The notes: generated by a model from the letters alone, not told the origin. A DNA stretch of 64,000 nt from Paraspadella gotoi (GCA_051294375.1 CM119266.1:21829875-21893874), one strand, 5' to 3'; counted from the stretch's first letter, positions 20,647 through 53,145 are shown. A program made the numbers and translations.

Positions 20647-23600
20647 ATGGATGAAGAGGAAAAGAACGTAGAAGAAAAACTAACCCCCCCACAGTCTGAT
20701 ACCGATGTCTGCGAGCCTTCCAACGAGGAGAGCCAGGCGACCATTGACGAGCCTGTTTCCACCTCAGCCGACGGAGCGTTCGGAGAGACGGACACCGTCG
20801 ACGATTTTGTCGAGAGTCTCATCAAAGGGACGCAACTAGTGATAACCGAAGAAGAAGATGGGAAGGAACCGGAAGCGGAACCGGAAGGGGAACTGGAAGG
20901 AGATTCCTCTTCAAGTAACATTCGAAAAAACGAGTTAAATCCCGAGTCCGAAACCGTAAAAGAAGAAAAAACGGAGGAAGTCTTTGAAAAAATAGAGTCT
21001 ATGGATTCCCCTGACTCTCCCATTGAAGAAAAACAAGATTCGGACGAATTGACGCGTCAAGATTCTTGCGAAGGCGCCGATCAAGATTCGGTAGAAGACA
21101 GAAATGAGGAAGACGTCGCCGGACAAAACAAATTAGCCAATTTCCTCTTCGGCAACGTAGACGCGGAAGGGAACTTGGAGAACGATTGCTTCGACGCCGA
21201 CGAAAAAAAGTCATTGGAGAACCTGTGCTCGCTTGGCATCGGCCGCTTCGTCAAGGAATTGGACGAGAACGAAACGGGCGAAAGCGCGGGCGATGTCGGC
21301 GACGACGCGGGAGTGGAACCGAAGAGCCCTTCCGCACAAGACTTCTCGGATATCACGGAAGTCGTGGAAACGACGCCCGAAGAGGAGGAAGAGTTTCGCA
21401 AGAAATTCGTAGTATTAAAGCCTCCGATCGAGAAGTCTCCCTCGCCCGCTGAAGGGGGCGAAGACAACGATTATGACGCTGACGACGAAACGACGAACGA
21501 AGATGAGGACGTTGGTGGCGACGACGACAAGAAGGTCGAGTCGGGTGAGAAGGAAACGAAAGACGCTCCTTCTCAAGACAGTGACGGCGGTAAAAGACTT
21601 TTGGACGCTACTCTGATGCCTCCGCCATCTTGGATTCCCAAAAAGGAAGAGTTGGAGAAAAAGAGCGAAAAAGAAAAGTCGCCGGAAATGCCCATAAATT
21701 ACAAACCTTTGGCGAGCATGCTCCCAGGTTAAATTAAGTTTTTTTTATTTTTTTACTGCAGATTGAGCAGAGTAGAATATTTTGTTTTAAACTTTAAAGT
21801 GATTATGATCATACAAGAAATATGATAAATTACTACTATAACAAAAATGGAATCATATTCATAGTATTGAATTTTTAATATTTATACATATTATTGTTCC
21901 CTTCTCATATTTCAGAGCATCTTCTGGGCATCCGGGCGGAAGACCTATTTCCCGAATTCCAAGAGGGCGCCATTCTTCGCTTCGGTCGCCTTTTTAAACC
22001 CGTTCACAAGCCATCCATCTGGAGCGGCGCTCGAAATTATCGCAAACGCACCAAGAAAAAAGAGGGCGGAGAAGACGCTGTCACGGAGGAGGGGACGGGA
22101 GATGAAGAGGACGATCCTTTCGCCTGGTGCAACGTTAAGCTGGATTTTCCCGAAGCCCGGCCCGAGGACGTTGGTCCCGACCAGATGGACGAGTTCTGCA
22201 AACCTATGGTCTACGAACCCAGCGCGTCTGACGCAGATGGAGGCGACGTAGAGGCTAATGGTGACGTGGCGCCCTGGCGTTTCGGACCCGCTCAATATTG
22301 GTACGATCAGCTAAGCATGGGCGACACCGAATCCGATTACAATGGCACCCTTCGCGCTCTGCGGAGTCTGGAAAAAGCCGACGCTGGGGATGACCAAGAG
22401 GGCAAGCCATCCAAAGAAGCAGGCAATGCTGTACCAAGTTCGAATTTTGTCGATCCTCCGGCGTCAACCTCAGCCGCCGATTTAGATTATCCTGCCGCCG
22501 CCTACCATCTCATCACTCAGCTGCAGTGGGAAGACGACATTATCTGGAATGGCGAAGAGTATCGAACGAAACTGCATCAAAATCGTCATCGCCAGGCCGC
22601 CGCCGGTTGGGTCCCTTCTAGCACTAACCGGACGGCGTCGCAGTTTGTTCAACAAGGCGGCAAATCCGGGCCAGGTGGTGTAAACGTCAAACTTAGCAGC
22701 GCCACCAAGCAGGCGTTATCGGCGTTGTCTAAAGTAGGCGGTGAGAAAATTGATTCGCGCAAAGGAGGCGAGGGGGCTGACGGGCGGTGGTACTCTATCT
22801 TTCCTGTCGACAACGAAGAGCTCGTACTTGGCGACTGGGAATCGAAAATCATTTGGGACGCGGACGACGTGTCGCGGATCTCTCCTCCGTCACTACTGAC
22901 TCTCGACCCTAATGATGAGAATATCATAATTGGGATGCCAGAGGACGTCAAGGAGACCGACAAGGATGGCCAGGGAGCGGAGATCTCTCGCCACACGGGC
23001 CGTCGGGGTCGCGAAAAACCCGACCGCACGCGGACGCAGGCATTGATCGGCAAGACTCTGGAGAAGACGCGGGAGGAGGCCGAGGCCGACGTCGAAAAGA
23101 ATAAGCTGCTCAATAAGAGTGGAAAGAATCCATGGAACATCTCCAACGACGAGTTTTACAACCCTAAACAGAGTAATTCCACCCTTTATGGCGCCATGGG
23201 ACACGGAACCTGTTTGCAGCATTCCACTCCGAGCGTTGAGTTACGCCAACCTTATTTTCCCACGAAAATGAGCGTGGCGCAGTTGCGCAACTTCCATCGT
23301 CCACCCTTGAAAAAGTACTCTCATGGCGTCATGTCGCAATACGTCTGGCATCCGGTGCAGTCGCTTCACAAAACCGTAAGAAAGAAGGCCAAGCAACGAG
23401 AGCAAGACCGTCTAGCTTCCGGCGGCGGCGAAATGTTCTTTATGCGGAAACCGGAGGATTTAACAGGAAAAGACGGTACCATAGTTCTCTCTGAATACTG
23501 CGAGGAATTCCCCGCGATTCTTAATCAAGTGGGAATGGCTGTAAAGATTAAAAACTTTTACAAACGGAAGCCTGGCAAGGACGCCGGCGCACCCACTTTG

Positions 23601-26600
23601 CCTTTCGGGGAAACGGCGTTCGCGCATACCTCGCCTTTTCTCGGCGCCCTCGTTCCCGGGCAGTGCGTGCAGGCGTTTGAGAACAATCTTTTTCGATCAC
23701 CCATCTACCAGCACCGACTTCCCGCCACCGACTTTCTCATTATTCGATCCCGCTCACAAATGTGGATTCGCGACGTGGAAACGGTTTTTACCATCGGCCA
23801 ACAATGTCCCCTCTTCGAAGTTCCAGGCCCCAACTCAAAGCGCACCAACAACTTTATTCGCGATTTTCTTCAAGTCTTCATTTTTCGTCAATTTTGGAAA
23901 AGCAGAGAGGATCCGCGTAAAGTCAAGATGGACACGGTGCGTAACGGATTTCCGAGTCAATCTGAATCAGCCATTCGTAAACGTCTCAAACTAAGCTCGG
24001 ACTTTAAACGAACCGGCAATGACTCCAACTGGTGGGTTCTCAAGCACGATTTCCGGCTGCCGCACGAAGAGGAAATTCGAGCCCTTGTATCGCCTGAGCA
24101 GTGCTGCGCCTATTATTCGATGCTCGCCGCCGAGCAGCGCCTCAAGGACGCTGGGTACGGGGACAAGAGCCTTTTCACCCCCATGGAGGACGAGAATGAC
24201 GAGGAAACCCAGTTGAAGCTTGACGACGAGGTCAAAGCTGCTCCTTGGCACACGACGCGCTCTTACATTAATTCCATGAAGGGCAAGTGCTTGCTGCAAC
24301 TGACGGGGCCCGCCGATCCGACCGGATGTGGCGAAGGCTTTTCTTACATGAGAATGCCAAACAAACCCATGGGCACCAAAGAGGAGGAGAAAGAACGCCG
24401 AGAATTGGCCAGAAAATCGGTGACCGGTACCGACGCGGATCTTCGTCGTCTCTCCCTTAAAAACGCCAAAAATCTCCTGAGAAAATTCAGCATTCCCGAA
24501 GACGAAATAAAAAAGCTGAGTCGGTGGGAAATCATCGATGTGGTCCGCGCTATGTCGACGGAACAGGCCAAGCAAAAGATGGCGGAGGGAGTCGGGTCAG
24601 AGGCAGTCTTCAAGTTCGCCCGAGGCAACCGATTCTCCATCGCCGAACATCAAGAGCGCTATAAAGAAGAATGTCAACGAATCTTCGATCTGCAAAACAG
24701 AATTCTAGCTTCGGAAGAAGTCCTTTCCACCGACGACGAGAGTTCCTCCGGTGACGACTCTGACTTTGAAGAGATGGGGAAGAACATCGAGAACATTTTG
24801 AGCAATAAAAAAACCTCTAGCGAGGTCCGCCTGGAAAAGGAGGAGAAAGAGCGCGAAGAGTTGAAAAAGCTCATGATGGGAACTGGAGAATTCGACAAAA
24901 AATCAAAGGGCGAACAAAAGGGAAACGATCCGCTTTACGCTGGCTCGAAACACAAATGCGTTCTGAAAATATCGCGAGTTTTCAAGGACGAACGAGGCGA
25001 GTCTTATACGCGCGAAGAAATCGTTAAGGATCCCAAGGTCGTAGAGATTTACGTGCGAATTCGGCAAAGTCGTGACGCCAACTTCATCAAGCATCATTTT
25101 TCGGGCCCCGACGACGCCGAAAAGGAGGAGCTGAAAAAGGAAAAGCGTCGCGTGCAAGAACAATTACGGCGCTTGAAAAAAACCGAGGATGGAAGCAAGA
25201 GGCCCAACGGCGCCTCCGACCCTTTCGGTCCAGGCGGGCCTTCCCCCAAGAAAAAGAAGAAAGAGGGCCCTCCGTTGAAGCTCAAATGCGGTGCCTGCGG
25301 CCAGGTTGGCCACATGAAGACTAATCGGGAGTGTCCCATGTTCAATAATCCCAACTTTACCTTGGCCGAAATGGCCGCGGGCGCGCCCCCTTTCTCTTAT
25401 TCTCTCATGCAATCGGTACCACAAACGGTCGTTTCCGTTCCGTCGGCTCCTCCGGCCTTCGAGAAAAATCAGAGCAGTACTCCCTCTCCTGCTTTGACGG
25501 AGAACAAGCCCTTAGAGGAGGGCAACTTGCTCAGGGTCGAAGGAACCAAGATTATCGTCGCTAAACCCCTCGTCGAGCAGGCGGAGGCAGAACGTCGCAA
25601 GTCTCTGCTTTTGACTATTCCCAAGGACAAACTGAAGGAGCCCGAAAAAGAAACTCCCTCCCGCGGACCGGGGAGACCCAAAAAACCAAGAAAGATCGGT
25701 TCCGTCCTTCACTGCAACTACCTCGAAAAGCGGCACCAGAAAATCGATCGGCGAAGGATCGATCCCGTCGTCACCATGTCGATCGTTTTGGAAGAAGTCC
25801 TCAACGAGATTCGCGACTTGCCCGACACGGAACAATTTCGCCATCCCGTTGACGGAAAGCTCGTGCCCGACTATTATCGCATCGTAAAATCCCCCATGGA
25901 CTTGCAAACCATGAGGGAAAAACTTCGCGCTCACAAATACGTCAGTCGAAAAGATTTTTTGGAGGATATAAACCAAATCTTCGCAAACAGCTCTCTCTAC
26001 AACGGGGCTCAGTCGGTACTGACACGGACAGCCAAATCGATGCTGGACAGATGTGTTCAAAAACTGGCGGAGAAAGAGGAGAAACTGATGAAGCTCGAAA
26101 AAGCCATCAATCCGCTCCTCGACGAGAACGACATCGTCGGATTCACTTTTATTCTGAAGAACATCGTCGAAAAACTCCGCTCCATCCCGGGCTCGTGGCC
26201 GTTTCACAAACCCGTCAACCGAAAGTTTGTCAAAAATTATTACGACGTCGTCAAAAACCCGATCTGCCTCAACGACATTGAGGAGAAGATCAAGGAGAAA
26301 AAGTATCATTCGCGCCACCAGTTTCTCGACGACATAGTCCTTCTTCATTCCAATTCCGTCCAGTTCAACGGAGCCTCCAGCGAGTGGACTCACAAGGCCC
26401 AAGAGATTCTCGACACTTGTCGTCACTTGATGGCAGAACAGGAAAAGGATCTCGGCGAGTTGGAGGCCAACATGCAGGCGTCTCGTCAGGCGGCGCTGGA
26501 CGCCGTGGAGACCGATTCCAACGTGACGGGGACGTCTTACGGAGAACGAATGGGCGGCACTGAGGACGAGGACGGCGGGAGTCGACCGCCGAGTCGAAGC

Positions 26601-27686
26601 CGAATGGCCGAAGTGGACGAGGAAGATCAGCCGACGGAAATGCCCGGCGTGAGTGTTCCTTGCCCCGACGACCCCCGCCCCGCTCCCGCAGACGAAAGAG
26701 AAACCGGTGGCGCGTCTACTACTGAAGACGACGACGAGGACGAAAATTTCGTGGAAGCAGAAACGAAAGAAAAAGAGAGAGAAGATGAAGAAGAGGAAGA
26801 GTTTGAAGAGGAAGAGGCCGAAGAGGAAATTCCAAAGAAAGAGACGAAAAAGATGGGATCGCGTCGATCGCGAGGGAAAAAAGTTCCCTCGGTTCTTTCA
26901 AACGATTTGGAAATGAGCGACAACGAAGAAGAGGAAGAGGAGGAGGAGGAGGAAGAAGAAGAAATGGAGGTCTCGGATGATGAGGACGCTAACGCCGCTT
27001 ACGGAGACTCCGAAGTAGCAAAGCCTTCGGATGCAGAGGCATCCGGTGCCAACGCCACGCCTGGCGCCATGTTCTTCGTTGACAATGACGGACAGGCCGT
27101 TTCCATGCCCGTTGTTCCTTCAGGCGCGGACGCCGTGGCAGCCGCTTTCGAAGCCACCGCCGCCGGGTTCGAGCCAGACGCCGCGGCCGCCTACGCCGCC
27201 GTCGCCGCCACCCCCATGCACCCCGGAATCGCGGCCACTCCGTTTCATCCGGGAATCATCGCCACTCCTTTTCATCCCGGAATCATCGCCACGCCCTTTC
27301 ACCCGGCCGGTGCTTACTACCCGGAGCCTAATCTCAACCCGGTGGAGGATAGTGACGATGACGTCGACGACGACTACGACCCGACGGAACTTTTTATCGA
27401 GGGCATGAACAACATGGCCGACGCGGAGACGCGTTCCTCGATGCCGCCACCTCCGCCCTTTGACGCTCCTGATGCTAATGGACCCTCATCATCACCCCCG
27501 CGGGACAACGTCGTCAACGACCTTCAAGTCTCTGATTCGGAGGATGAAGAGGAAGAGGATGATGAAGACGAAAAGCGGGAGTCCAGCCAGAATTCTGGAT
27601 CGGCCAACTCTGACGATGACCCTTTGGCCAGCGAAGACTTTTACGCTCACGCTCCCGCGGATCAAGGATTCGATTTAGGATTTTAG
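20647..27686 (+). CDS. TAF1: TFIID subunit 1 (TAF1), 2 exons (20647-21727, 21916-27686)
   Basis: TAND motif FLFGNVDAEGNL, DUF3591 core (WNISNDEFY, APWHTTRSY, GPADPTGCGEGFSY), zinc knuckle LKCGACGQVGHMKTNRECP, tandem bromodomains and an acidic tail. Confidence 0.96.
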
Positions 27687-33619: not shown

Positions 33620-36275
33620 ATGTCTTTGAGTAGCGTGCTCCCGGCTCCCACGCAGAAGCCCTTTGACCGTGACGAGCATGAAAGGGCCAAGCAAGTTAAA
33701 GCCGCCGCGGCCGCGGGTATGTTTCAGATTTTCATCATAGATTAAGTAGAATTTTTAAATTTAAAATTTAATTTTCGTTTTTAATTTTAATAGGTTCGAG
33801 CACGGCTGTGTTGCTCGCTGGCCGTGCGCCTCCTTACGGAAGTCGTGACAACGGTAAATGGATTCCTCGAACGCCGGCCGATTTCGGCGACGGCGGCGCT
33901 TTTCCTGAAATTCATGTCGCCCAGTACCCGCTAGGAATGGGGCAGAAGGACGAAAAAAAAGAAAAATCTAACGCACTCGCATTACAGGCATATCCTTGTA
34001 CCGTTTTGTTGGGTGTTGGAGGTGACTTTAAATTTTTATGACGAGAAATTCGTTGATTTTTCGAAGGTCGACGCTGAAGGTAAGGTCAAATACGATGCCA
34101 TCGCTCGCCAAGGTCACGGGAAGGATCGGGTAGTTTTCTCGAAGTTCGAAGATTTGTTGCCCCGTGAAGTTCTGGATGAGGACAGCGAGGATCTGCAGAA
34201 ACCCGACGGAGAGGAGGTAAATAATATCTTTTTATCTAATTATAATTGATTACTTTCATGGTTATTTTCATCGTTATCCTTTCTAACTTCATTGAAGATT
34301 ATTTTTCAATTTTAAAATTTTCAGATTGAGGATAACACCGAGCGAACGAGATCTGCCCTAGAAAAGCTCGTCCAAAGCAAAATCTCTGCGGCGATGCCCG
34401 TCAGATGCGCTGAGAAGCAAGCCCCGGCTCAATATATTCGTTACACGCCTTCTCAACAGGTCTTTAACCAATTTTCATTTTCTTTCTCCTCGAATTATTT
34501 CGATTATTTTTTATTTTGACATCGACACAGGGTGCCGCCTTCAATAGTGGCGCCAAGCAGCGAATCATTCGCATGGTCGAAGCCCAGGTTGACCCCATGG
34601 AGCCGCCAAAATTCAAAACCAACAAGAAAATCCCTCGTGGTCCCCCTAGTCCTCCGGCGCCGGTCATGCATTCGCCCGGCAGGTTATAGTCTACTCACGA
34701 GGCTTGCAGCTAAATATCGCGTTAAATAATTCCTTTGATTCTTATTGTCGGTTTTTATTGGGGGGATGGTACAGGAAAGTTACTGCCAAAGAACAGCAAG
34801 AGTGGAAGATCCCTCCCTGCATATCCAACTGGAAAAACGCTAGGGGATATACCATTCCCTTAGATAAACGTTTGGCAGCTGATGGCCGTGGTCTTCAGCA
34901 GGTAAAATGCTGTTTTTATTCGTGTATTGGTTGGGTTGCCTGTGATGCCCATTGGGATGGGGCATCTCACTGTTGGCTTTGGGGGCTTCCAACCCTCAGT
35001 GACGACTCCTGTCACTGGCGCGGTTACCCTAGGACGGTCTCTCTTTGCCAACGCAGAGGGAAGTCGTTAGGACTTTGGATGGAACACAACTCCTGGAATG
35101 GTGTGTTCCCCCTCTGAGCCAATGGGATTGGCTGAACGATGACGGACGTGAGGCGGTGTGAATATACCGTCACACATTACTCTTTTTCTTACGTCGTCCA
35201 GGTTCATATCAATGAAAATTTTGCCAAATTGGCTGAGGCGTTATACATCGCTGATCGCAAAGCGCGTGAAGCGGTCGAGATGCGCGCTCAGATCGAAAAG
35301 AAGTTGGCGCAGAAGGAAAAGGAAAAGAAAGAACAAAATCTAAGGTTCGTCTCCAGAAATTGGTTCTTTGGTTTTTCACTCTTTTTTTTCATATTCTCTT
35401 TCTTTTTAAGGGAATTGGCTCAGAAGGCGAGAGAAGAGCGAGCGGGAATCCATCGGCCAACCGCAGCGGGTTCCGCCGCAGACAAAGAAGGTTCGTATTT
35501 ACTTTCTCTTCACCTTTAATTAAACGAATTTAATCATGATGCCTCTTCTCGCTAGGAGCCGAAGATCGTGACGCCTTACGCTACGAGCGACACAAGGACC
35601 GGGCTCGCGAACGCAACCTCGCCCGCGCCGCTCCGGAGAAGAGAAATAAACTGAGTCGCGATAAGGAGCGAGACATCAGCGAGAAAATCGCCCTCGGGCT
35701 TCCCTCCGCCGGCGGCACCGGCGGAGACACACAGTTCGATTCCAGGTTAGCCTGGATGAGGAATATTCGTGGATGAATCTATTTTTGGACCGTTTCACTA
35801 CGCTTGCCCCCCCCCTCTTTCGACCAGGTTGTTCAACCAGTCGAAAGGTCTCGACCAAGGGTTCGGCGCCGAAGACGATACTTACAATGTTTACGATAAA
35901 CCCTGGCGACCCGCTGGCAGCCTGGCCAGCAACTTGTACCGCCCATCTAAAGGACAGGTTACTATTTTGATCTTGATATTTTTTTAAAACGTATTCTTAT
36001 GCGCTCGTCTTTTTTTTTCTCAAAAGGACAAAGACACTTACGGCGACGATTTGGAGACCATCATGAAGACGAACCGCTTCGTGCCCGACAAAGAGTTCTC
36101 TGGCACGGACAGAAGCGGCCGTCGAGACGGCCCCGTCCAGTTCGAGCGCGACGAAGGAGTCGAGGACGATCCCTTCGGTCTCGACAAATTCTTGGCTGAG
36201 GCCAAAAGCCAAGGCGGCAAAAGGGCGGCCAGTTCGTCTGGAGCTTCCGCGTCGAAGTCACGAAAGAGAGAGTGA
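33620..36275 (+). CDS. SNW1: SNW domain-containing protein 1 (SKIP/Prp45), multi-exon
   Basis: MSLSSVLPAPTQ, DFGDGGAFPEIHVAQYPL, QYIRYTPSQQ, WKIPPCISNWKN and NENFAKLAEALYIAD. Confidence 0.96.
34933..35167 (+). ncRNA. Unassigned ~235-nt structured repeat, copy 1, filling most of a SNW1 intron (34902-35201)
   Basis: Aligns by hand with the reverse complement of 45554-45787 (about 25 differences). It has multiple hairpins with compensatory and G-U-compatible changes. Whether it is an RNA or a DNA repeat is not established. Confidence 0.55.
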
Positions 36276-42843: not shown

Positions 42844-43014
42844 AGCGCCAAAATTCCCTTCGCCTTTAAAGGTCACTCAATAAAATCAAACTCCTTGTGC
42901 CAACGTGATTTTATTTGCTTGGCGTATTTGTGTGCTTACCGTGTTCATCGTTATTCTTATTAATTTTTAACAGGGTTTATGGTAAAGTAAAAATGCGATA
43001 ATAATTGTGTCATA

Positions 43015-45948
43015 ATGGCTGCGACGAAAGTAACTAATTTGACCAACAAATCGACGGTCGACCGAGTCGCCATTCAAAAGAAGATTCGAGATGGCGTTCC
43101 CCACGGCTGTTTTCCAACCCTATTCCGTTTCATTAAGCCCGACAGCGATTATTCTAAACGTTACATCCAAGGAACCGTCTACAAAAAATATGCAGCCCAA
43201 AAGCCGCCGGGCGTAGACATCCTAATTCAAACGCTGACCTTGCAAGAATGGAGCGTCTTGCCCAACGACTCTCCGCGCCGAATCACCATCAACGTGATGG
43301 GCGACCACATCGAGGGTTTTTCTTCCAAAGTCAAGCCGGAAGATCTCGTCGTTGTCACCGACTTCTCTTGCGGAGTGTTGGATGAAAAATGGGAGCACGA
43401 AGACAACCCCATGCAGGAGATTCTTTTCACAAATCCTTCTTCGAAGTTTTTGCGGATTTCCAAAGAAGATTTGGCGGCATCTAGTCGTCGAGTCGACGTC
43501 GACAAGTACGGGTGGGGTAATCGTGGCGCCGTTTATGACAATCCTGCGGAAGAGCAGACTCAGGCCGTCGGCGGGTGGGTCATCGCGCACGGGGACGCCC
43601 AGAGTTTGGCCAGCCAAGGAGATGTAGAATTTCGACCGCCGCTCGCGCAGTCGACTCAAATCCCTTCGCAGGTCTCGCAGAGATTAGGAAAAAGAAAGAT
43701 GGAAGACTCGCATTCGCCGCTGCCGCCGCCGGTTTCGAATCATGGCTCCAGCGAAGAATCTTACGTCACGGCGCGCGAGAACTTTGAGGAATTCGACGAT
43801 GATCCTTTGACGGCCAAAGCTAGGAGAACCGAGCCTTTTCATCCTTCGCAAAGAAAGACAAGGAGAATTGGGGCCAGCAATATTCCTTCGGTAGAGATTC
43901 AAACATCGAATCGTCCAGGAGTTTCAGCCGAGGCGCTGCCTTCCGTCACAGAACAAACGTCAACTTTCAAACCCAAATCACAAATATCAAATCCTCCTTT
44001 GTTCGAAGACGAAGAACAACACTCTTCCCATTCCTCCGATGAAAAGAAAAAGAAAGGGGAAACGAGCTCTCCACCAACGCGTGATATCTTTCCAAACAAA
44101 GAATCTTTCAATAGAATTCCCACCACTTCACAAAACCCAACCGCCGTAAATTCGACTGCAACTCAAGCTAACACGCCAGAAGCGCCTTCTAATGGTGTTC
44201 AGAAACAACATGTCGCATCTCTTTCTTCTCGCTCTACACCAACGGCGACAGTAGCACCACGCCAAGGTCCTTGTGAATACAAGTACACTCCGCTCAACGC
44301 CCTACCAGTCAACGCCGTTGTGAACGTCTTTGGCGTCGTTGAGTTCTGTAACCCGGCCAAGGCCCCACATCCAGGGCGCGATTGGTCTCTCACCTTTGGC
44401 CTCTGCGACCTTACCTCCATCGACGTTGAGAAGGACAAACTGCGCTGCGTCGCTTTTGCCGCGTCGCGAGACGCCCTGCCGCGGATCGAGCAGCGCGGTG
44501 ACGTCGTTCGTCTTCACCGCGTCAGGATCCAAATGGATCGCAGCGGCCGTAAGCAGGGATGTTGCTCGGCCAAGAACGGCTTCGGGTCGTTGGTGTGGCT
44601 GAGTAACGGACAACTCGCCGATCTATCACTTCCTCCGCCGTTGCCGATCAGCTCCACTCCCAACTTCACTACAGTTACGACATCTGAGAAAGAGAGGCTG
44701 GAAGATTTGCGCCAATGGGCGCGAGATCACGCCTTCTTCGCCTCCACCGTTTCAGCGTCGGCGGCTGACCCTTTCCTTCCGCCGCCCCCGCTTACGGGAA
44801 ACGTGAGGACTCTTGAGGCAATGATCTCGCCCTCTTATTTCGACCTCTGCTGTCAAGTTGTCGACGTCTGCGTCATCAATCCCGGCCTCTGCGCGATGTT
44901 ACGCGTCTGGGACGGGACCCAGCCTCAGTTTCCCATGTGGGAAATGGATCTGGATTCCGAGCAGAATCGCGGTCCCATCGATAGGTTCCACCCAGTCTAC
45001 GAGACGGCTCGTCACTGGCTCGTCGACGTCGTCGTCTGGGAGAATCATCTCGAGATTCTCGATCGAGTCAGACCGGGAAGTTTCGTGCTTTTTCGGAACC
45101 TTCACTTTGTGCGTCATCGCGAGTACGACCCCGCCCACGCTCGCGAAGCCAGGCACGAGTTAAACCTACGATCGGGCACGAGATTTGGGCGGGGCGTCAC
45201 TGTTTTAGAAGAGGGCAATCCTCTTCTTGAACCTTTGAGGGTGCGCTTGGAAGATCGAATGAGGCCAGCTGGAGTGTCCTCGCAATCTGGAAGTTCGCTG
45301 CACGCGTTGACGTCGTTGGCGGATGGAGTTCAAAGAATTGGAAATTCTTTTTCCTCCATCGACGAGGAGGTTTTAGACAGAGCGGTGAGGGAAGTTGAAA
45401 CGCCATCGGTTCAAGGTCAAGGTCGAGATCAAGGTCAAGATCAAAGTCAACATAGAACGACGAAAGAGGCGGAAAAATCTGCTACGCAAACCGAGGAAAC
45501 TAACGTTAATGATGAAGCAAGGTAAAAGTAAAAGTTATTAAGGTCTTGTGGTTGTATATTCACATCGCCTCACTCCACCATCGTTCACCCAATACCATTG
45601 GCTCAGAGGGGGAACGCACCATCTTAGGCGTTGCGTTCCATCCACAGTCCTAACGACTTTCCTCTGTGTTGGCAAAGCGAGACCGTCCTAGGGTAACCAC
45701 GCCAGTGACTAGAGGCGTCACTGAGGGTCGGAAGCCCTCAAAGCCAACAGTGAGATGCACCATCCCAATGGGCATCACATCCAACCCGGCTGTTTTTACG
45801 TCGAGTTTAACAATTAAATGTGCTGATTTTAAAGATCTTAAACTCAGATCAGCAGGCCCTCTCACTTGGTTGACATTAGGGGCTTTTGACCTTTACTGAC
45901 CGTTTGGAAGTTCATAAGTTGGGATGGTGCGTTATCCCGTATTGAATA

Positions 45949-46003
<55 letters not shown>

Positions 46004-47178
46004 TTTACAGAAACGTCCCCGCCGCGTCGACCACGACTACAGTTACTGTAACTTCTACCGCAGACGCAGCAAGAGCTGCTGTCAATATCTGTCCTGTTGC
46101 TTCTCATATCCAACCGGTTACTCTGGCTTCCACCTTTTATACGTCGATTTCTCCGTCCTTCCTTCCGACCAAAACCTGGCTTCCTCTCCGCGAGGTTGTC
46201 AATCCTCTTTATCACTCTCGCCTCGTCCGCGCCTTTTTTAAAACCAAAGCCGCCATCGTTTCCGTGACGCCCGACCTGACGACCCTGGACCCTCGCCACC
46301 TCATCGCGCTGAGCTGCAAGTCTTGTTCCGTCTCGATTCCGTCGTGCGCCTTCGTGACCGGCGACGAAGACCAATGTCGACGCCAGGGTCGTTTTCGCTG
46401 CTTGGAATTCGAAAGATTATTTCCGCCGGTCGACGATGCTTTTTTATCTGACGACGCCGTCGAATACGTCGATGATATTTTCGATCCGACGTGCGAAGAG
46501 GAAAATGACCCCGTAATCGCCGAGCCAGTCTCCTCCGGTCCGGGTCCCATGATCGACCTGCGCATCGCTCCTCCGGACAGCGATTCCGATTCGGAACAGA
46601 TCGGCGTCACGTCCTCCTCCATCAATGTCACGTTGGCGTCAAATCCCCGCGACTCACAGCCTCTTGTTTCCGGCGAAGTTCAATCGGAACAACCCGACGC
46701 GTTCGACGTTGTTCTCGATAAAGTCCTCGCCGATCTTCGCTACACTCTTCCTAACGTTCGAGGGAGCGTTCTTTTCTGTCCTCGATGCGCCAACAACTCG
46801 GGTTGCGTCAAAGGCGCCTCATTGTTGACGTCCAACGGCGCTCAAAACGCATTTTCCTCTCCTTTCGACTTTTCCCCGATTGTGGTTCCTCTTACATTTT
46901 CCATCGTCGATGAGACGGGATACCTAAAGAGCGTCGAGGCCTCGTCCTCATTCTTCGCTTTGTCACTTCGGAGTCACCTCAACTCGACCATCGATACGGC
47001 GGCGGCGCTGAGAGACGTTTCGGGTTTCGTCATGAACCTCGATCACGCTCTAAAATACCTGGAGAGAAGGACCAAGGCGGGACGCCCGATTTATTTGGAT
47101 TTTGGTATTTTAAGAGAAAAGGTTGAGGAAGGCTTTCGTTTCCAGACAGTCTCTACGGAATTTTCGTGCCTTACTTGA
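43015..47178 (+). CDS. POT1: Protection of telomeres 1 (POT1)-like, extended; 2 exons (43015-45521, 46011-47178)
   Basis: OB1 (YKYTPLNAL..VVNVFGVV..LPRIEQRGDVVRLHRVRIQ) and OB2 (YFDLCCQV..LRVWDGT..VDVVVWENH..PGSFVLFRNLH). The C-terminal region has two CxxC motifs. The phase-2 intron splices in frame. Confidence 0.82.
45554..45787 (-). ncRNA. Unassigned ~235-nt structured repeat, copy 2, inverted relative to copy 1, in the POT1 intron
   Basis: Its reverse complement matches 34933-35167 at roughly 89% by hand alignment. Confidence 0.55.
45945..46003. repeat. (TAA)n microsatellite directly upstream of the POT1 intron acceptor
   Basis: A long run of aat/taa units ending at aattttacag. Shorter runs occur at ~3045-3070 and ~49267-49298. 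Confidence 0.9.
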
Positions 47179-49863: not shown

Positions 49864-52800
49864 ATGTCCACGAAGAAGAGATCTCTCAACACTGCGCAAG
49901 AGACGCTTCAAAAACGTGCGCGGAAAAATGAGGTCGATAGCGACGACGAGGTCGAACTTGGTCCAGATTCTTTGTATAGCGACGACGAAAATGAGAACGA
50001 GGGTCAAACTGGCATCATCGAAAAGATTTGCCTCAAGAACTTCATGTGCCACACTGCGCTCGACATTAATCTTAACAGAAACGTCAATTTTATCGTCGGC
50101 CGAAACGGCAGCGGAAAGAGCGCCGTCATGACCGCCCTCGCTGTCGGCCTCGGCGGTCGGGCCCGGGACACGTCGAGAGGATCCTCCGTCAAGGGTTTCA
50201 TCAAAGCAGGAAAACCTTTTGGGGAAGTGAGCATTAAACTTTCCAACACTGGCAACGACGCTTACAAGCGCGACGTTTTCGGCGAAAGCATCGTTATAGA
50301 AAGACGATTCACGCAGTCAACATCTGGTTACAAACTTAAGTCCGCGGCGGGGCAGACGGTATCGACGAAGAGCGAAGAAGTCAGTCGGCTGTTGGACCAC
50401 TTTAACATCCAAGTCGATAATCCCATCTGCATGCTGAATCAAGATACTTCGAGAAACTTTCTCTTCAGTAAAAAACCCGAAGACAAGTACAAGTTTTTTC
50501 TCAAGGCGACAGAGCTGGAGAAAATGCAGTCGGAATACGAAGCGGCGGCGGTGAGTCACGATGAGTCGATGAGGTTTATTCAGAGTAAGAAAGAGTCCTT
50601 GCCGCATCTCGAGTCCGAGTTGAAGGTGTGGGAGAAAAAGGCCAAAGCCTTCACCTCCATCGACGAGTTAAAGGCCAAAGTTCACACACTCAAAAACGAA
50701 CTCGTTTGGACTCTGGTAAACCAGGACGAAAAGAAGCTGCAAGAGTTAAATCGCGGACTGAAGGAAGCGGAGGGCCGAAGACCCGCTCACGTTAAAAAGG
50801 TACAGGAATCCGAGGAGAAGCATAAAAGCGCCCTCGAAAAGAAGAAGGCCTTGGAAGCGAAAGTCGGAAGCGTCGCCAGGTGTCGGGACGAATTCGACGT
50901 CAAACTGAGAGATTTAACCAAGAACAAAAACGCTGCCCTGTCAGAGAAGAACAAGGCGGAGACAAACGTCCGCTATTCCTCCCGAGACATCGACCAGTTG
51001 CAACGCGACGTCAAATTGTTGGACGACAGAATTAAAACTATTCTTGAACAGAACAACAAAGATTACTCGGAAGACAAGAGAAAGAGGGAACAAGAAATCG
51101 AAGCGTTGGAGTCTCGGATCAACGAAACGAAAGCTCAAATGACGACCAATGAAAATCTGTTGGAACAGTTTAACCGAGCGGTTACCAAATACAAGGAAGA
51201 TATTTACAATCTCCAACGCGATCACAACGAGAAAAGCTCGACCATTCGAAATCTTAAGTCGGAGATTACCAAGTTTAAAAATTCCAAAAACGACAAATGG
51301 GCGCGTTTCGGTGATTGGGTTCCTAAAGTAAAGAGCGACATTCAAACTGCTCTTCGACGAGGAGTTTTCCGTTCGGAACCAAAAGGACCAGTTGGGGCTT
51401 ATTTGGAGCTCAAGCACGAAGAATATTCCCTCAGCATCGAAGCTTGTTTAGGGGGATTGATGACCACGTGGGTTGTCGACAACGCCAAGGATCTTGTTGA
51501 ACTGGAAAAGTTAATGCGTCGTCACACCCCGCGGCTCCCAAATCTTTCCGTTTCAAAGTATTTAGATCGACGCCACGACGTTTCGCGTTTTCAAGCGGAT
51601 AACTCTACTTACCCATGTCTCTTTGATCTTATTAAAGTCAATGATCCAGTCATTTTCAACTTTCTCGTCGACGCTCGAGGGGCAGAAAACGTTCTCTTTA
51701 TCCTTGACTCGGACGAGGCTCGTCCAATCCTTCAACGCAATCCGCCACAAAACTGCAAAGAATGTTTCACTCGTGCCGGGGATCAAATCTTTGCCGGCGG
51801 GGAGGGTGGTAACTATCGCTACTACTCGGCGGAAGCCAACGGCAGAGTACGCTTCCTCGTCGCTGATCACTCTGCAGCGGTGGCCGTGATGGAGCAGGAG
51901 CAGCGCCGGCTCGAGGCGGAAGCCGAGACGATCGCTCAGTCGTTGCGCGCCGTACAGGCGGAAATGGAGAGTAACAAACGGGAAAAGTTCAAGCACGATC
52001 AGCACATGACTCGTCTTAGGCAAAACCTGGCCAAGATTCAGACGGAGTGGACGGACTTGCGCGCAGTCGAAGACCCGATGCCCATCGACGTCACGACTCT
52101 GCGTGAGGATCTAGATAATCTTACCTCGGAAATTGGAAAGAAAAAAGAGGTAAAGGCCGAATGGGAAGAGAAATTAAGCGTGCTTTCCACGCGCGCCGCC
52201 GATGCGCAAGCCAAGTTTGACGAGGTGCAGACGAAGCTCCTCGATTTGGTGACCAACAGCGAGAACGACGCTCTTGAACTCAATGGAATCCTGAGCGACT
52301 TGCCCCGACTGCAGTCGAACATATCGCACTACATGGCAAAGATGGATCAACTGGAAGAGGATGTGCGGAATAAAACCGAGGAACGCGATCGACAGAAGGA
52401 ATTGGTCGACGAGAGAGTGGGGAAGGCGGGGACGGTTTGTCCGCGGATGAGAGCCAAGCGAACACCGGACCACCTTAAGTCGGAGATCGTGCAAATCGAG
52501 AAACGCATAGAGTCGGAAGAAGAGATTCACGGCGACAAGGAGGTCGTCCTTCAGAGCTACCGAGAGAAAAAAGCTCACGTTGAGGACATTAAGAGCAAAA
52601 TTGCGGGACTATCTCACTTCGCCGGCGTTTTCAACGAAATCATGAGCAACCGCAGGGAGAACCATAATCTCTTCAAACACATGCTGGCCCAACGGATTCG
52701 CGCCTTTTTCGCGAACATGCTGGAACAGCGCCAGTATCGGGGACAGTTGAAATTCGATCACGACAAACATACGCTCGACATTCATGTGCAGCCTCAGGCG

Positions 52801-53145
52801 GATGCTTCCCAGCAAGGAGACATGCGTCAACTCTCTGGCGGAGAGAGGTCTTTCAGTACAGTCTGCTTCGTACTGTCGCTTTGGGAGGCTATGGAATCCC
52901 CTTTTCGCTGCCTGGATGAGTTCGACGTTTTTATGGATAACGTGAACCGCGCCATCGCCATGCAGATGATGATTCACACCACAGAGAAGCACAAGGAACA
53001 ACAGTTTATCTTTCTCACTCCTCTCGATATGTCGCACCTAGGAGGGAAGACGGGACTCAAGATTTTCAAGATGCCTGATCCAGAGAGAGGGCAGACAACG
53101 CTTGATTTTAAGAAAAAAGACGAAGATAACAACAACGAACATTAG
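49864..53145 (+). CDS. SMC6: Structural maintenance of chromosomes protein 6, intronless
   Basis: LKNFMCH, Walker A GRNGSGKS, QVDNPICMLNQDTSRNFL and a hinge domain. Signature LSGGERSFSTVCF and Walker B FRCLDEFDVFMD are SMC6-type. Confidence 0.95.
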   Translation: MSTKKRSLNTAQETLQKRARKNEVDSDDEVELGPDSLYSDDENENEGQTGIIEKICLKNFMCHTALDINLNRNVNFIVGRNGSGKSAVMTALAVGLGGRARDTSRGSSVKGFIKAGKPFGEVSIKLSNTGNDAYKRDVFGESIVIERRFTQSTSGYKLKSAAGQTVSTKSEEVSRLLDHFNIQVDNPICMLNQDTSRNFLFSKKPEDKYKFFLKATELEKMQSEYEAAAVSHDESMRFIQSKKESLPHLESELKVWEKKAKAFTSIDELKAKVHTLKNELVWTLVNQDEKKLQELNRGLKEAEGRRPAHVKKVQESEEKHKSALEKKKALEAKVGSVARCRDEFDVKLRDLTKNKNAALSEKNKAETNVRYSSRDIDQLQRDVKLLDDRIKTILEQNNKDYSEDKRKREQEIEALESRINETKAQMTTNENLLEQFNRAVTKYKEDIYNLQRDHNEKSSTIRNLKSEITKFKNSKNDKWARFGDWVPKVKSDIQTALRRGVFRSEPKGPVGAYLELKHEEYSLSIEACLGGLMTTWVVDNAKDLVELEKLMRRHTPRLPNLSVSKYLDRRHDVSRFQADNSTYPCLFDLIKVNDPVIFNFLVDARGAENVLFILDSDEARPILQRNPPQNCKECFTRAGDQIFAGGEGGNYRYYSAEANGRVRFLVADHSAAVAVMEQEQRRLEAEAETIAQSLRAVQAEMESNKREKFKHDQHMTRLRQNLAKIQTEWTDLRAVEDPMPIDVTTLREDLDNLTSEIGKKKEVKAEWEEKLSVLSTRAADAQAKFDEVQTKLLDLVTNSENDALELNGILSDLPRLQSNISHYMAKMDQLEEDVRNKTEERDRQKELVDERVGKAGTVCPRMRAKRTPDHLKSEIVQIEKRIESEEEIHGDKEVVLQSYREKKAHVEDIKSKIAGLSHFAGVFNEIMSNRRENHNLFKHMLAQRIRAFFANMLEQRQYRGQLKFDHDKHTLDIHVQPQADASQQGDMRQLSGGERSFSTVCFVLSLWEAMESPFRCLDEFDVFMDNVNRAIAMQMMIHTTEKHKEQQFIFLTPLDMSHLGGKTGLKIFKMPDPERGQTTLDFKKKDEDNNNEH

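Follow-up and report, generated by a model that had tools for sequence, protein, structure and literature searches.

The element described here is a real, high-copy mobile repeat of Paraspadella gotoi that bears the motif of a circularly permuted twister ribozyme, and it most likely works like a retrozyme. Two of its copies lie in a 64-kb window (the whole stretch of DNA that was analysed, 64,000 nt, from whose first letter positions are counted), and these a first-pass annotation of this window had proposed as a candidate "new ncRNA, ribozyme or structured mobile element". Both the ribozyme motif and the mobile repeat are borne out by our analysis, as is the reading of a structured element with a fold of importance, but not an intronic non-coding RNA of two copies.

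A dispersed repeat with fixed ends

As the first-pass annotation had reported (about 89% identity between reverse-complement copies), 34933-35167 on the + strand aligns with 45554-45787 on the - strand at 89.4% identity over 235 columns (E 9e-84), and this is the sole repeat pair inside the window. Both copies are intronic, as had also been stated: the first sits in a gene identified by Pfam as SNW1/SKIP, where a contig of run X9 (guessed to be RNA) skips 34902-35201 with GT..AG ends, and the second in an inferred intron of POT1. Relative to their host genes, the copies are oppositely oriented. The expected difference in base composition was found, copy 1 having 56% GC and the remaining 58 nt of the SNW1/SKIP intron 34%. 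The other seven introns of this gene measure 65-82 nt, and that subtracting the element shrinks the intron to 58 nt is as expected for an insertion. The repeat copies, their host introns and the structures found by folding are:

34933..35174, - strand (ribozyme strand): repeat copy 1, from pairwise alignment and a contig depth step with loose ends at 34932-34935 and 35168-35175
45547..45787, + strand (ribozyme strand; sense to the POT1 pre-mRNA): repeat copy 2, from pairwise alignment and contigs
34902..35201, + strand: SNW1/SKIP host intron, 300 nt, spliced in the X9 contig
45522..46010, + strand: POT1 host intron, 489 nt, phase 2, inferred from GT/AG and reading phase
35054..35116, either strand: three-way junction of a 6-bp closing helix, a 7-bp arm and a 4-bp arm with a 5-nt loop, from folding
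35152..35171, + strand: subterminal hairpin at one repeat end, from folding and loose ends
34933..34969, - strand: hairpin 34969-34941 plus what is left of the other terminal hairpin, from folding and loose contig ends

The host genome is gene-dense. The SMC6 reading frame is 67% and 60% identical to two metagenome proteins and at most 39% to molluscs and amphioxus.

The element had been described as present twice, but public sequencing data show a high-copy family. Nine public runs from three studies contain the locus, of which seven were compared (contigs being accepted at 80% likeness). In three DNA runs, 7178, 2087 and 2123 contigs match the copy 1 stretch, and summed contig depth, which is not a copy number, is 16-103 in the flanks and 0.7-1.4 million within the element (about 10^4-fold). 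Contigs leave the locus at 34933 with one common 13-nt extension before diverging from each other (153, 110 and 100 contigs in the three runs), and 35174 is a second shared exit point (79, 57 and 54 contigs); the same pile-up occurs at copy 2 in three further DNA runs. Shared ends combined with hundreds of differing flanks indicate a fixed-ended dispersed repeat some 255 nt long. The boundaries first given, 34933..35167, therefore shift: the family reaches about 13 nt past 34933 toward lower positions, where copy 1 has lost or altered its end, and the other end is 35174. The element is thus a high-copy, fixed-ended, non-coding mobile repeat with at least hundreds of loci and, given two copies per 64 kb here, probably thousands. 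Run X9, presumed to be RNA and splicing SNW1 introns, contains many contigs of the repeat, although its contigs carry no strand, end or level information.

The family's flanks are AT-rich on both sides, with consensus agreement of only 0.4-0.67. As read from loose contig ends, the family ends form a 6-nt inverted repeat with one mismatch, and a GC-rich hairpin lies within a few bases of each end, one with a double change; the hairpin on the 34933 side is a 6-bp stem in the family. Summed depth declines toward the 5' end of the ribozyme strand. No empty-site joint occurs among the joints listed (15 of 73 for copy 1 and 12 of 12 for copy 2), the contigs showing presence only. Copy 1 itself differs from the family majority at many sites, like a drifting copy.

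The helices named in the first-pass annotation all form on folding, but their reported covariation, which had been read as selection on the fold, is thin overall: RNAalifold finds one double change in 75 pairs between the two window copies. The change from GGAACAC/GTGTTCC is a genuine double change whose two halves are minor alleles (5-8% and 3.5-8.5% of depth in four runs), and their similar frequencies fit a single subfamily, that is, one event. The subfamily double change at 35086/35104 (from contig variants) lies inside the three-way junction, which pairs equally well on both strands. The changes in GGGGG/CCCTC and TGTTGGC/GCCAACG are rare family alleles (at most 1.7% and 3.8%), and the loop of CAGTGAC/GTCACTG varies in the family as it does between the copies. 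Of the two long-range pairings suggested, GTCGTT with AACGAT lacks support in the family, where 48-64% of depth has G in place of C35137 and the variants listed (40 of 63) include no G35066>C; CCATTGG with CCAATGG shows no variation among those same variants. Folding z-scores of -2.0 to -3.2 are alike for both strands and favour neither.

A permuted twister layout on the opposite strand

In the first-pass annotation, the + strand of copy 1 had been favoured as the functional one and no match to twister had been recognized, but a complete type-P5 twister layout lies on the opposite strand. Although the window contains no match at Rfam's gathering threshold, a weak match to the twister-P1 model was found on that strand, and it becomes the top hit in both copies once the stretch is narrowed (18.6 bits, E 0.061, and 14.4 bits, E 0.95, vs a threshold of 67.2). 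This model spans only the segment from cut site to P4, because the other parts lie upstream in a circularly permuted motif; the Rfam Twister-P5 model has no listed match anywhere in the window. Other weak Rfam matches (mir-1994, TYMV_upPK, glutamine riboswitch, SNORD41, Plastid-psbl-rps4 and osmY; E 0.14-7) were set aside as chance. The following parts were placed, those within copy 1 by the twister register:

34971..35053, - strand: type-P5 twister layout of copy 1, from Rfam hit, descriptor and part-by-part check
35053-47/34977-71, - strand: P5
35043-40/35023-20, - strand: P2
35039 and 35038, - strand: G35039 (general-base position) and A35038
35037-35/34991-89, - strand: pseudoknot T1
35034-27, - strand: P1
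35025..35026, - strand: predicted cleavage site U|A (U35026|A35025), inferred from the twister consensus (PMC8501958 Table 1 and Rfam)
35019-18/34986-85, - strand: pseudoknot T2
35017-11/35003-34997, - strand: P3
34996-93/34984-81, - strand: P4
45667..45749, + strand: type-P5 twister layout of copy 2, from Rfam hit, descriptor and part-by-part check
45694|45695, + strand: predicted cut of copy 2, from the twister consensus

In both copies, the parts follow in the order P5, AAA, P2', G-A, T1', P1 hairpin, U|AA, P2, GC, P3, P4, L4 and AAA. Both retain the cleavage-site strand U|AA and, opposing it, G-A (general acid A, general base G), and neither the U|AA nor the G-A residues vary among the contig variants listed. 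Pseudoknot T2 (GC with GC) forms both of its pairs, the L4 residues U, A, A, G and C are all present, P5 has 6-7 pairs, and P3 has all seven. T1 consists of CG, CG and GC pairs in copy 2 and in the family majority, with one G-U in copy 1. The remaining helices are imperfect: P4 forms three of four pairs, with an outer A-C mismatch; P1 has only 2-3 pairs; and P2 forms two of four pairs in each window copy but three with the majority allele. Each copy has its own private P2-breaking change, at 35042 in copy 1 and 45699 in copy 2, and pairing is restored by the family majority at both (99% and >99% of contig depth) as well as at T1 position 34991 (97.5%).

Three of the five helices first noticed are twister parts read in reverse complement: TGTTGGC/GCCAACG is P5, CAGTGAC/GTCACTG is P3 and the GGGGG/CCCTC hairpin is P4/L4. 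The G-U pairs that had seemed to favour the + strand either lie at the ends of helices or belong to a shifted register, and the change at 34981 turns G-C to G-U within P4 in the twister register; the preference of one terminal hairpin for the + strand does stand (35152-35171 has no mismatches on + vs two on -). The motif is very probably a twister ribozyme of circularly permuted type P5.

The Rfam Twister-P5 family (RF02684, clan CL00120) has the same arrangement, P2'-GA-T1'-P1 hairpin-UAA-P2-GC-(P3)-P4-L4, and shares with the element an L4 with U, AA and GC, three T1 pairs, two T2 pairs and a P2' ending in A. Unlike RF02684, in which T1 reads CCC/GGG and P1 has about eight pairs, the element has a pair-swapped T1 (CGG/CCG), a P1 of 2-3 pairs, C in place of U at the first P2 position and a closed P5 of 6-7 bp; it scores below threshold and resides in an animal repeat.

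Controls and relatives

A twister descriptor that allows two P2 mismatches and either permutation, built from the Table 1 consensus of PMC8501958 after the lead had been seen, matches twice in 128 kb, exclusively at the two window copies. The shuffled element gave two and one matches per 20,000 (3/40,000 in total), and 60 shuffled windows gave two. As a positive control, the canonical P5 pattern retrieved 48 viral loci: 16 of the 20 that were scanned are Rfam Twister-P5 above threshold, with a part order identical to that of the window copies, and P1 has at least four pairs in 35 of the 48. Patterns with the swapped T1 gave zero and six viral matches, 30 in metagenomes and 18 in prokaryote genomes. 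The window copies form 20 and 21 helix pairs vs 4-13 (mean 7.3) in 51 of 54 loci that have the motif only, the other three lying outside the script's gap limits and being left out.

None of the 30 metagenome loci with the swapped T1 aligned to the element. The corresponding P1 pattern yielded three viral matches, one of which is a true twister: this locus (L088) is a fully paired twister-P1 with the same T1 swap (48.3 bits, E 2.8e-9), and it too falls short of Rfam's gathering threshold. A pattern of two blocks from the element had no match in either metagenome or viral contigs, and a single 15-mer viral match was rejected as a relative, its flanks being unrelated. We thus found no homolog of the element outside Paraspadella gotoi in metagenome or viral contigs or, by the swapped-T1 P5 pattern, in prokaryote genomes. 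MAFFT did not bring the window copies into register with natural P5 twisters, owing to their short P1, and GTCGGAAGC is absent from the PMC8501958 supplement. Descriptors for hammerhead, HDV-like, hairpin and pistol cores revealed no second ribozyme in the two copies, on both strands of each; a loose twister-sister word and a hatchet word occur once apiece but lack the surrounding structure.

Predicted cleavage and proposed modes of spread

A family-typical copy would probably cleave itself, judging from how its defects compare with those of natural twisters. Natural twisters tolerate imperfections in P1, P2 and P4, one P4 position less so; their sensitive sites are the pseudoknots and catalytic bases (PMC11662667). 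Tolerance in P1, P2 and P4 is likewise described in PMC5113685, according to which most T1 pairs are replaceable by other pairs, and P1 is reported to be dispensable (PMC5408937 and PMC11662667). In the window copies, the pseudoknots and catalytic bases are intact. Against cleavage stand the C-A mismatch retained by the family majority at the first P2 pair, adjoining the active site, its outer A-C in P4 and very short P1, the want of a listed Twister-P5 match, and a rival fold whose stability exceeds that of the nested twister fold by 13-17 kcal/mol, pseudoknots not counted.

The predicted cut divides the element into parts of about 150 and 110 nt; depth reaches its maximum on each side of this point, with no drop on either. 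Since copies span this internal cut, the element does not begin at its own cut, unlike the Schistosoma RTE element Perere-3. The twister variants of Perere-3 (PMC8501958) resemble ours in containing P3 and in belonging to a high-copy animal element, but they are of type P1 and occupy the extreme 5' end of a LINE that codes for reverse transcriptase, with a duplication at the cut, whereas the present motif is of type P5 and internal to a short, non-coding element with no reverse transcriptase reading frame after the cut. That both sides of the cut are kept leaves three routes: a source doubled as two LTRs or as a dimer, whose RNA would run from cut to cut and probably be circular; uncut RNA; or movement at the DNA level.

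We favour the first of these, with a probability of roughly 0.5: by analogy, the element likely spreads as a retrozyme does, with cut-to-cut RNA copied by a borrowed reverse transcriptase. The family-majority motif would cleave its own RNA; source copies would hold a pair of like-oriented units (LTR-internal-LTR or a dimer), from which two cuts would release a unit RNA whose 5'-OH and cyclic-phosphate ends could be circularised; reverse transcription around the circular template would restore both sides of the cut; and an integrase-type enzyme would set the fixed ends. The dispersed monomers would then most simply be solo LTRs, and the two window copies old passengers, each with its private P2 break. 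Monomeric copies whose two ends are both fixed are best matched by the solo LTRs that an LTR retrozyme would leave. A more specific version, to which we give less than even odds, is an animal LTR-type retrozyme built on a circularly permuted twister, with solo LTRs of about 255 nt in thousands, whose twister-cut circular RNA would hijack the reverse transcriptase and integrase of an LTR retrotransposon.

In plant LTR retrozymes, the LTRs measure 300-400 bp and contain the ribozyme, solo LTRs occur, and duplications are 4 bp long (PMC4918200). The element is like them in being non-coding, in holding a ribozyme inside a fixed-ended unit of 250-400 bp, and in occurring as lone units, but theirs is a type III hammerhead and ours a twister in an animal host, and of their paired LTRs, tRNA primer site, purine tract and 4-bp duplication none is seen at the window copies. 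A second LTR, primer-binding site, purine tract or tandem junction was also not found among the contig ends listed (15 of 73 joints and 24 of 827 loose ends), and the absence of a 4-bp target duplication concerns two eroded copies. The 3' end of the ribozyme strand reads TA vs the usual CA. The hammerhead core CUGANGA is absent from both strands of both copies. Metazoan non-LTR retrozymes (PMC7229834) share with the element an animal genome, a length of about 220-350 nt, thousands of copies, an internal self-cleaving motif and highly paired RNA; however, they carry type I hammerheads, form tandem dimers to multimers and have less than 50% GC, whereas both window copies are monomeric with shared ends, 56% GC and a twister. 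No reverse transcriptase or integrase domain occurs in the 69 reading-frame stretches scanned (of 119 of at least 110 aa in the window), and no autonomous partner was seen in these or in the contig matches listed. We do not class the element as a retrozyme, as it is without a hammerhead and the other defining features are putative.

An unlikely alternative is that the repeat is a non-autonomous element moving at the DNA level (a MITE, a Helitron2/Helentron-like element or a recombinase-integrated one) by way of its hairpins or inverted ends, with the twister as a passenger or as a module that cuts transcripts. MITEs have terminal inverted repeats of at least 10 bp with a fixed duplication, and Helitrons have TC...CTRR ends. 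Sharp ends on both sides of monomeric copies, the GC-rich hairpin near each end (one with the double change), the 6-nt inverted ends, the AT-rich flanks and the lack of a poly(A) tail would all suit such movement. The inverted ends are, however, far shorter than those of a typical MITE, there is no TC...CTRR end, and the reading-frame stretches scanned contain no transposase or Rep domain; terminal hairpins of the Helitron2 kind are present, but asymmetric inverted repeats are unconvincing. Moreover, DNA-level movement leaves unexplained why a whole, pair-swapped ribozyme core has been retained.

The element could also be a SINE-like retroposon dependent on a LINE, which we again consider improbable. 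Here, the more stable rival fold would block the ribozyme, and uncut transcripts would insert through target-primed reverse transcription that starts at the 3' terminal hairpin. The fall in depth toward the 5' end of the ribozyme strand is what 5' truncation would give, although it may be an artefact of divergence; an A-box-like 11-mer occurs on the ribozyme strand of both copies, but about 0.1 are expected by chance (an estimate), and no B box, tail or duplication accompanies the window copies. Twisters are tied to RTE LINEs, but RTE twisters are 5'-terminal with the duplication adjoining the cut (PMC8501958), whereas here some 150 nt upstream of the cut are retained. A tRNA-derived SINE was rejected: ARAGORN detects no tRNA, and the A-box-like word lies 52 nt from the end with neither B box nor tail.

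That the likeness to twister is a decayed relic or chance, and RNA catalysis no longer used, is very unlikely. The low Rfam scores, the short P1, the family-wide mismatches in P2 and P4 and the stabler rival fold would all be expected of a relic, but the odds of a chance match are about 1 in 10^4 before P3 and P5 are counted, the 20-21 helix pairs exceed the maximum of 13 in motif-only loci, and the parts that are intact (catalytic bases and both pseudoknots) are the sensitive ones. Finally, a domesticated intronic RNA acting from the + strand (like telomerase RNA, RNase P/MRP or a snoRNA) is largely refuted and barely credible. In its favour, the spliced housekeeping intron holds copy 1 in sense orientation, and one terminal hairpin is better on +. 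Against it, there are hundreds of unrelated flanks, the corresponding strand of copy 2 runs antisense to the host gene, copy 1 deviates from the family majority at numerous positions, and neither an Rfam match at threshold nor a tRNA, box C, Sm site or TTAGGG/TTAGG template was found. Telomerase RNA, RNase P, MRP and snoRNAs combine a low copy number with a template, CR-I/CR-V or box motifs, a combination that the element does not have. The individual candidates telomerase RNA, RNase P/MRP, 7SK, U3 and H/ACA were dropped on copy number.

A retrozyme-like twister repeat would have no counterpart in the literature searched. The open full-text literature yielded no type-P5 twister internal to a short animal repeat, nor any of the longer sequence words taken from the element, one 12-mer occurring in five unrelated papers. 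Retrozymes found in that literature use hammerheads, the LTR type in plants and the tandem type in animals (PMC4918200 and PMC7229834), and the only biological role of twisters found there is the 5' processing of RTE LINEs (PMC8501958, and a remark in PMC7761336). Twisters would gain a second role from a permuted motif located inside a short animal repeat with fixed ends, and LTR-type retrozymes possibly a further ribozyme class and another host kingdom. If the proposed mode of spread is true, the family would be a mobile element with fixed ends, driven by a twister and spreading by RNA circles, of a kind absent from the literature searched. Because Rfam at its normal threshold misses the family completely, other invertebrate genomes may contain overlooked elements of this kind. 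With thousands of natural copies, a ready mutational series would be available, and could be used to test whether intron-sense copies are selectively inactivated.

Twisters in viral contigs

Twisters of type P5, the layout seen in the repeat, were numerous in the viral contigs of our comparison set (loci L032-L079), where 35 of the 48 matches were fully paired, and two of these contigs each carried two such twisters (L036/L056 and L070/L071). A further viral contig held a fully paired twister of type P1, whose score of 48.3 bits lies under the Rfam gathering score and in which the T1 pseudoknot was swapped (CGG/CCG):

L088, 77-145, minus strand: type-P1 twister

The window copies and their host genes

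Both window copies of the repeat bear a private change that breaks twister P2, at 35042 in copy 1 (in the SNW1 intron) and at 45699 in copy 2 (in the POT1 intron). The ribozyme strand of copy 2 runs in the sense direction of the POT1 pre-mRNA; in copy 1 this strand is antisense to SNW1. Two cases are too few to demonstrate selection.

42991-45521, plus strand: POT1, with Pfam matches to POT1 (residues 434-577) and POT1PC (613-755)
45945-46003: (AAT)20 microsatellite, in the POT1 intron that also houses copy 2

The roughly 430 residues ahead of the first OB fold of the POT1 protein had no Pfam match and possibly include an extra N-terminal domain. Judged by reading frame only, the second SNW1 intron (33988-34066) apparently starts with GC and has a weak donor consensus, and several further degenerate donors (GTCTTT, GTTATA, GTTCGT) can be inferred among the introns of this gene. 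The genome is gene-dense, with about 20 genes in these 64 kb; SMC6 is one unbroken ORF (49864-53145) and TAF1 includes a 5.8-kb ORF stretch (21879-27683).

Possible repeat subfamilies

In eight contigs from sequencing run X7, loose ends at 35079 mark other sequence in place of the GGAACAC arm of the three-way junction (35079-35110; agreement 0.54), hinting at a second repeat subfamily, and the replacement may still form a hairpin. Some alleles at 35088 and 35126 were commoner in X9, a presumed RNA run, than in DNA runs: A>T at 35088 reached 90%, versus 55-66%. As samples differ between runs, these frequencies are a weak sign that one repeat subfamily could be preferentially transcribed.
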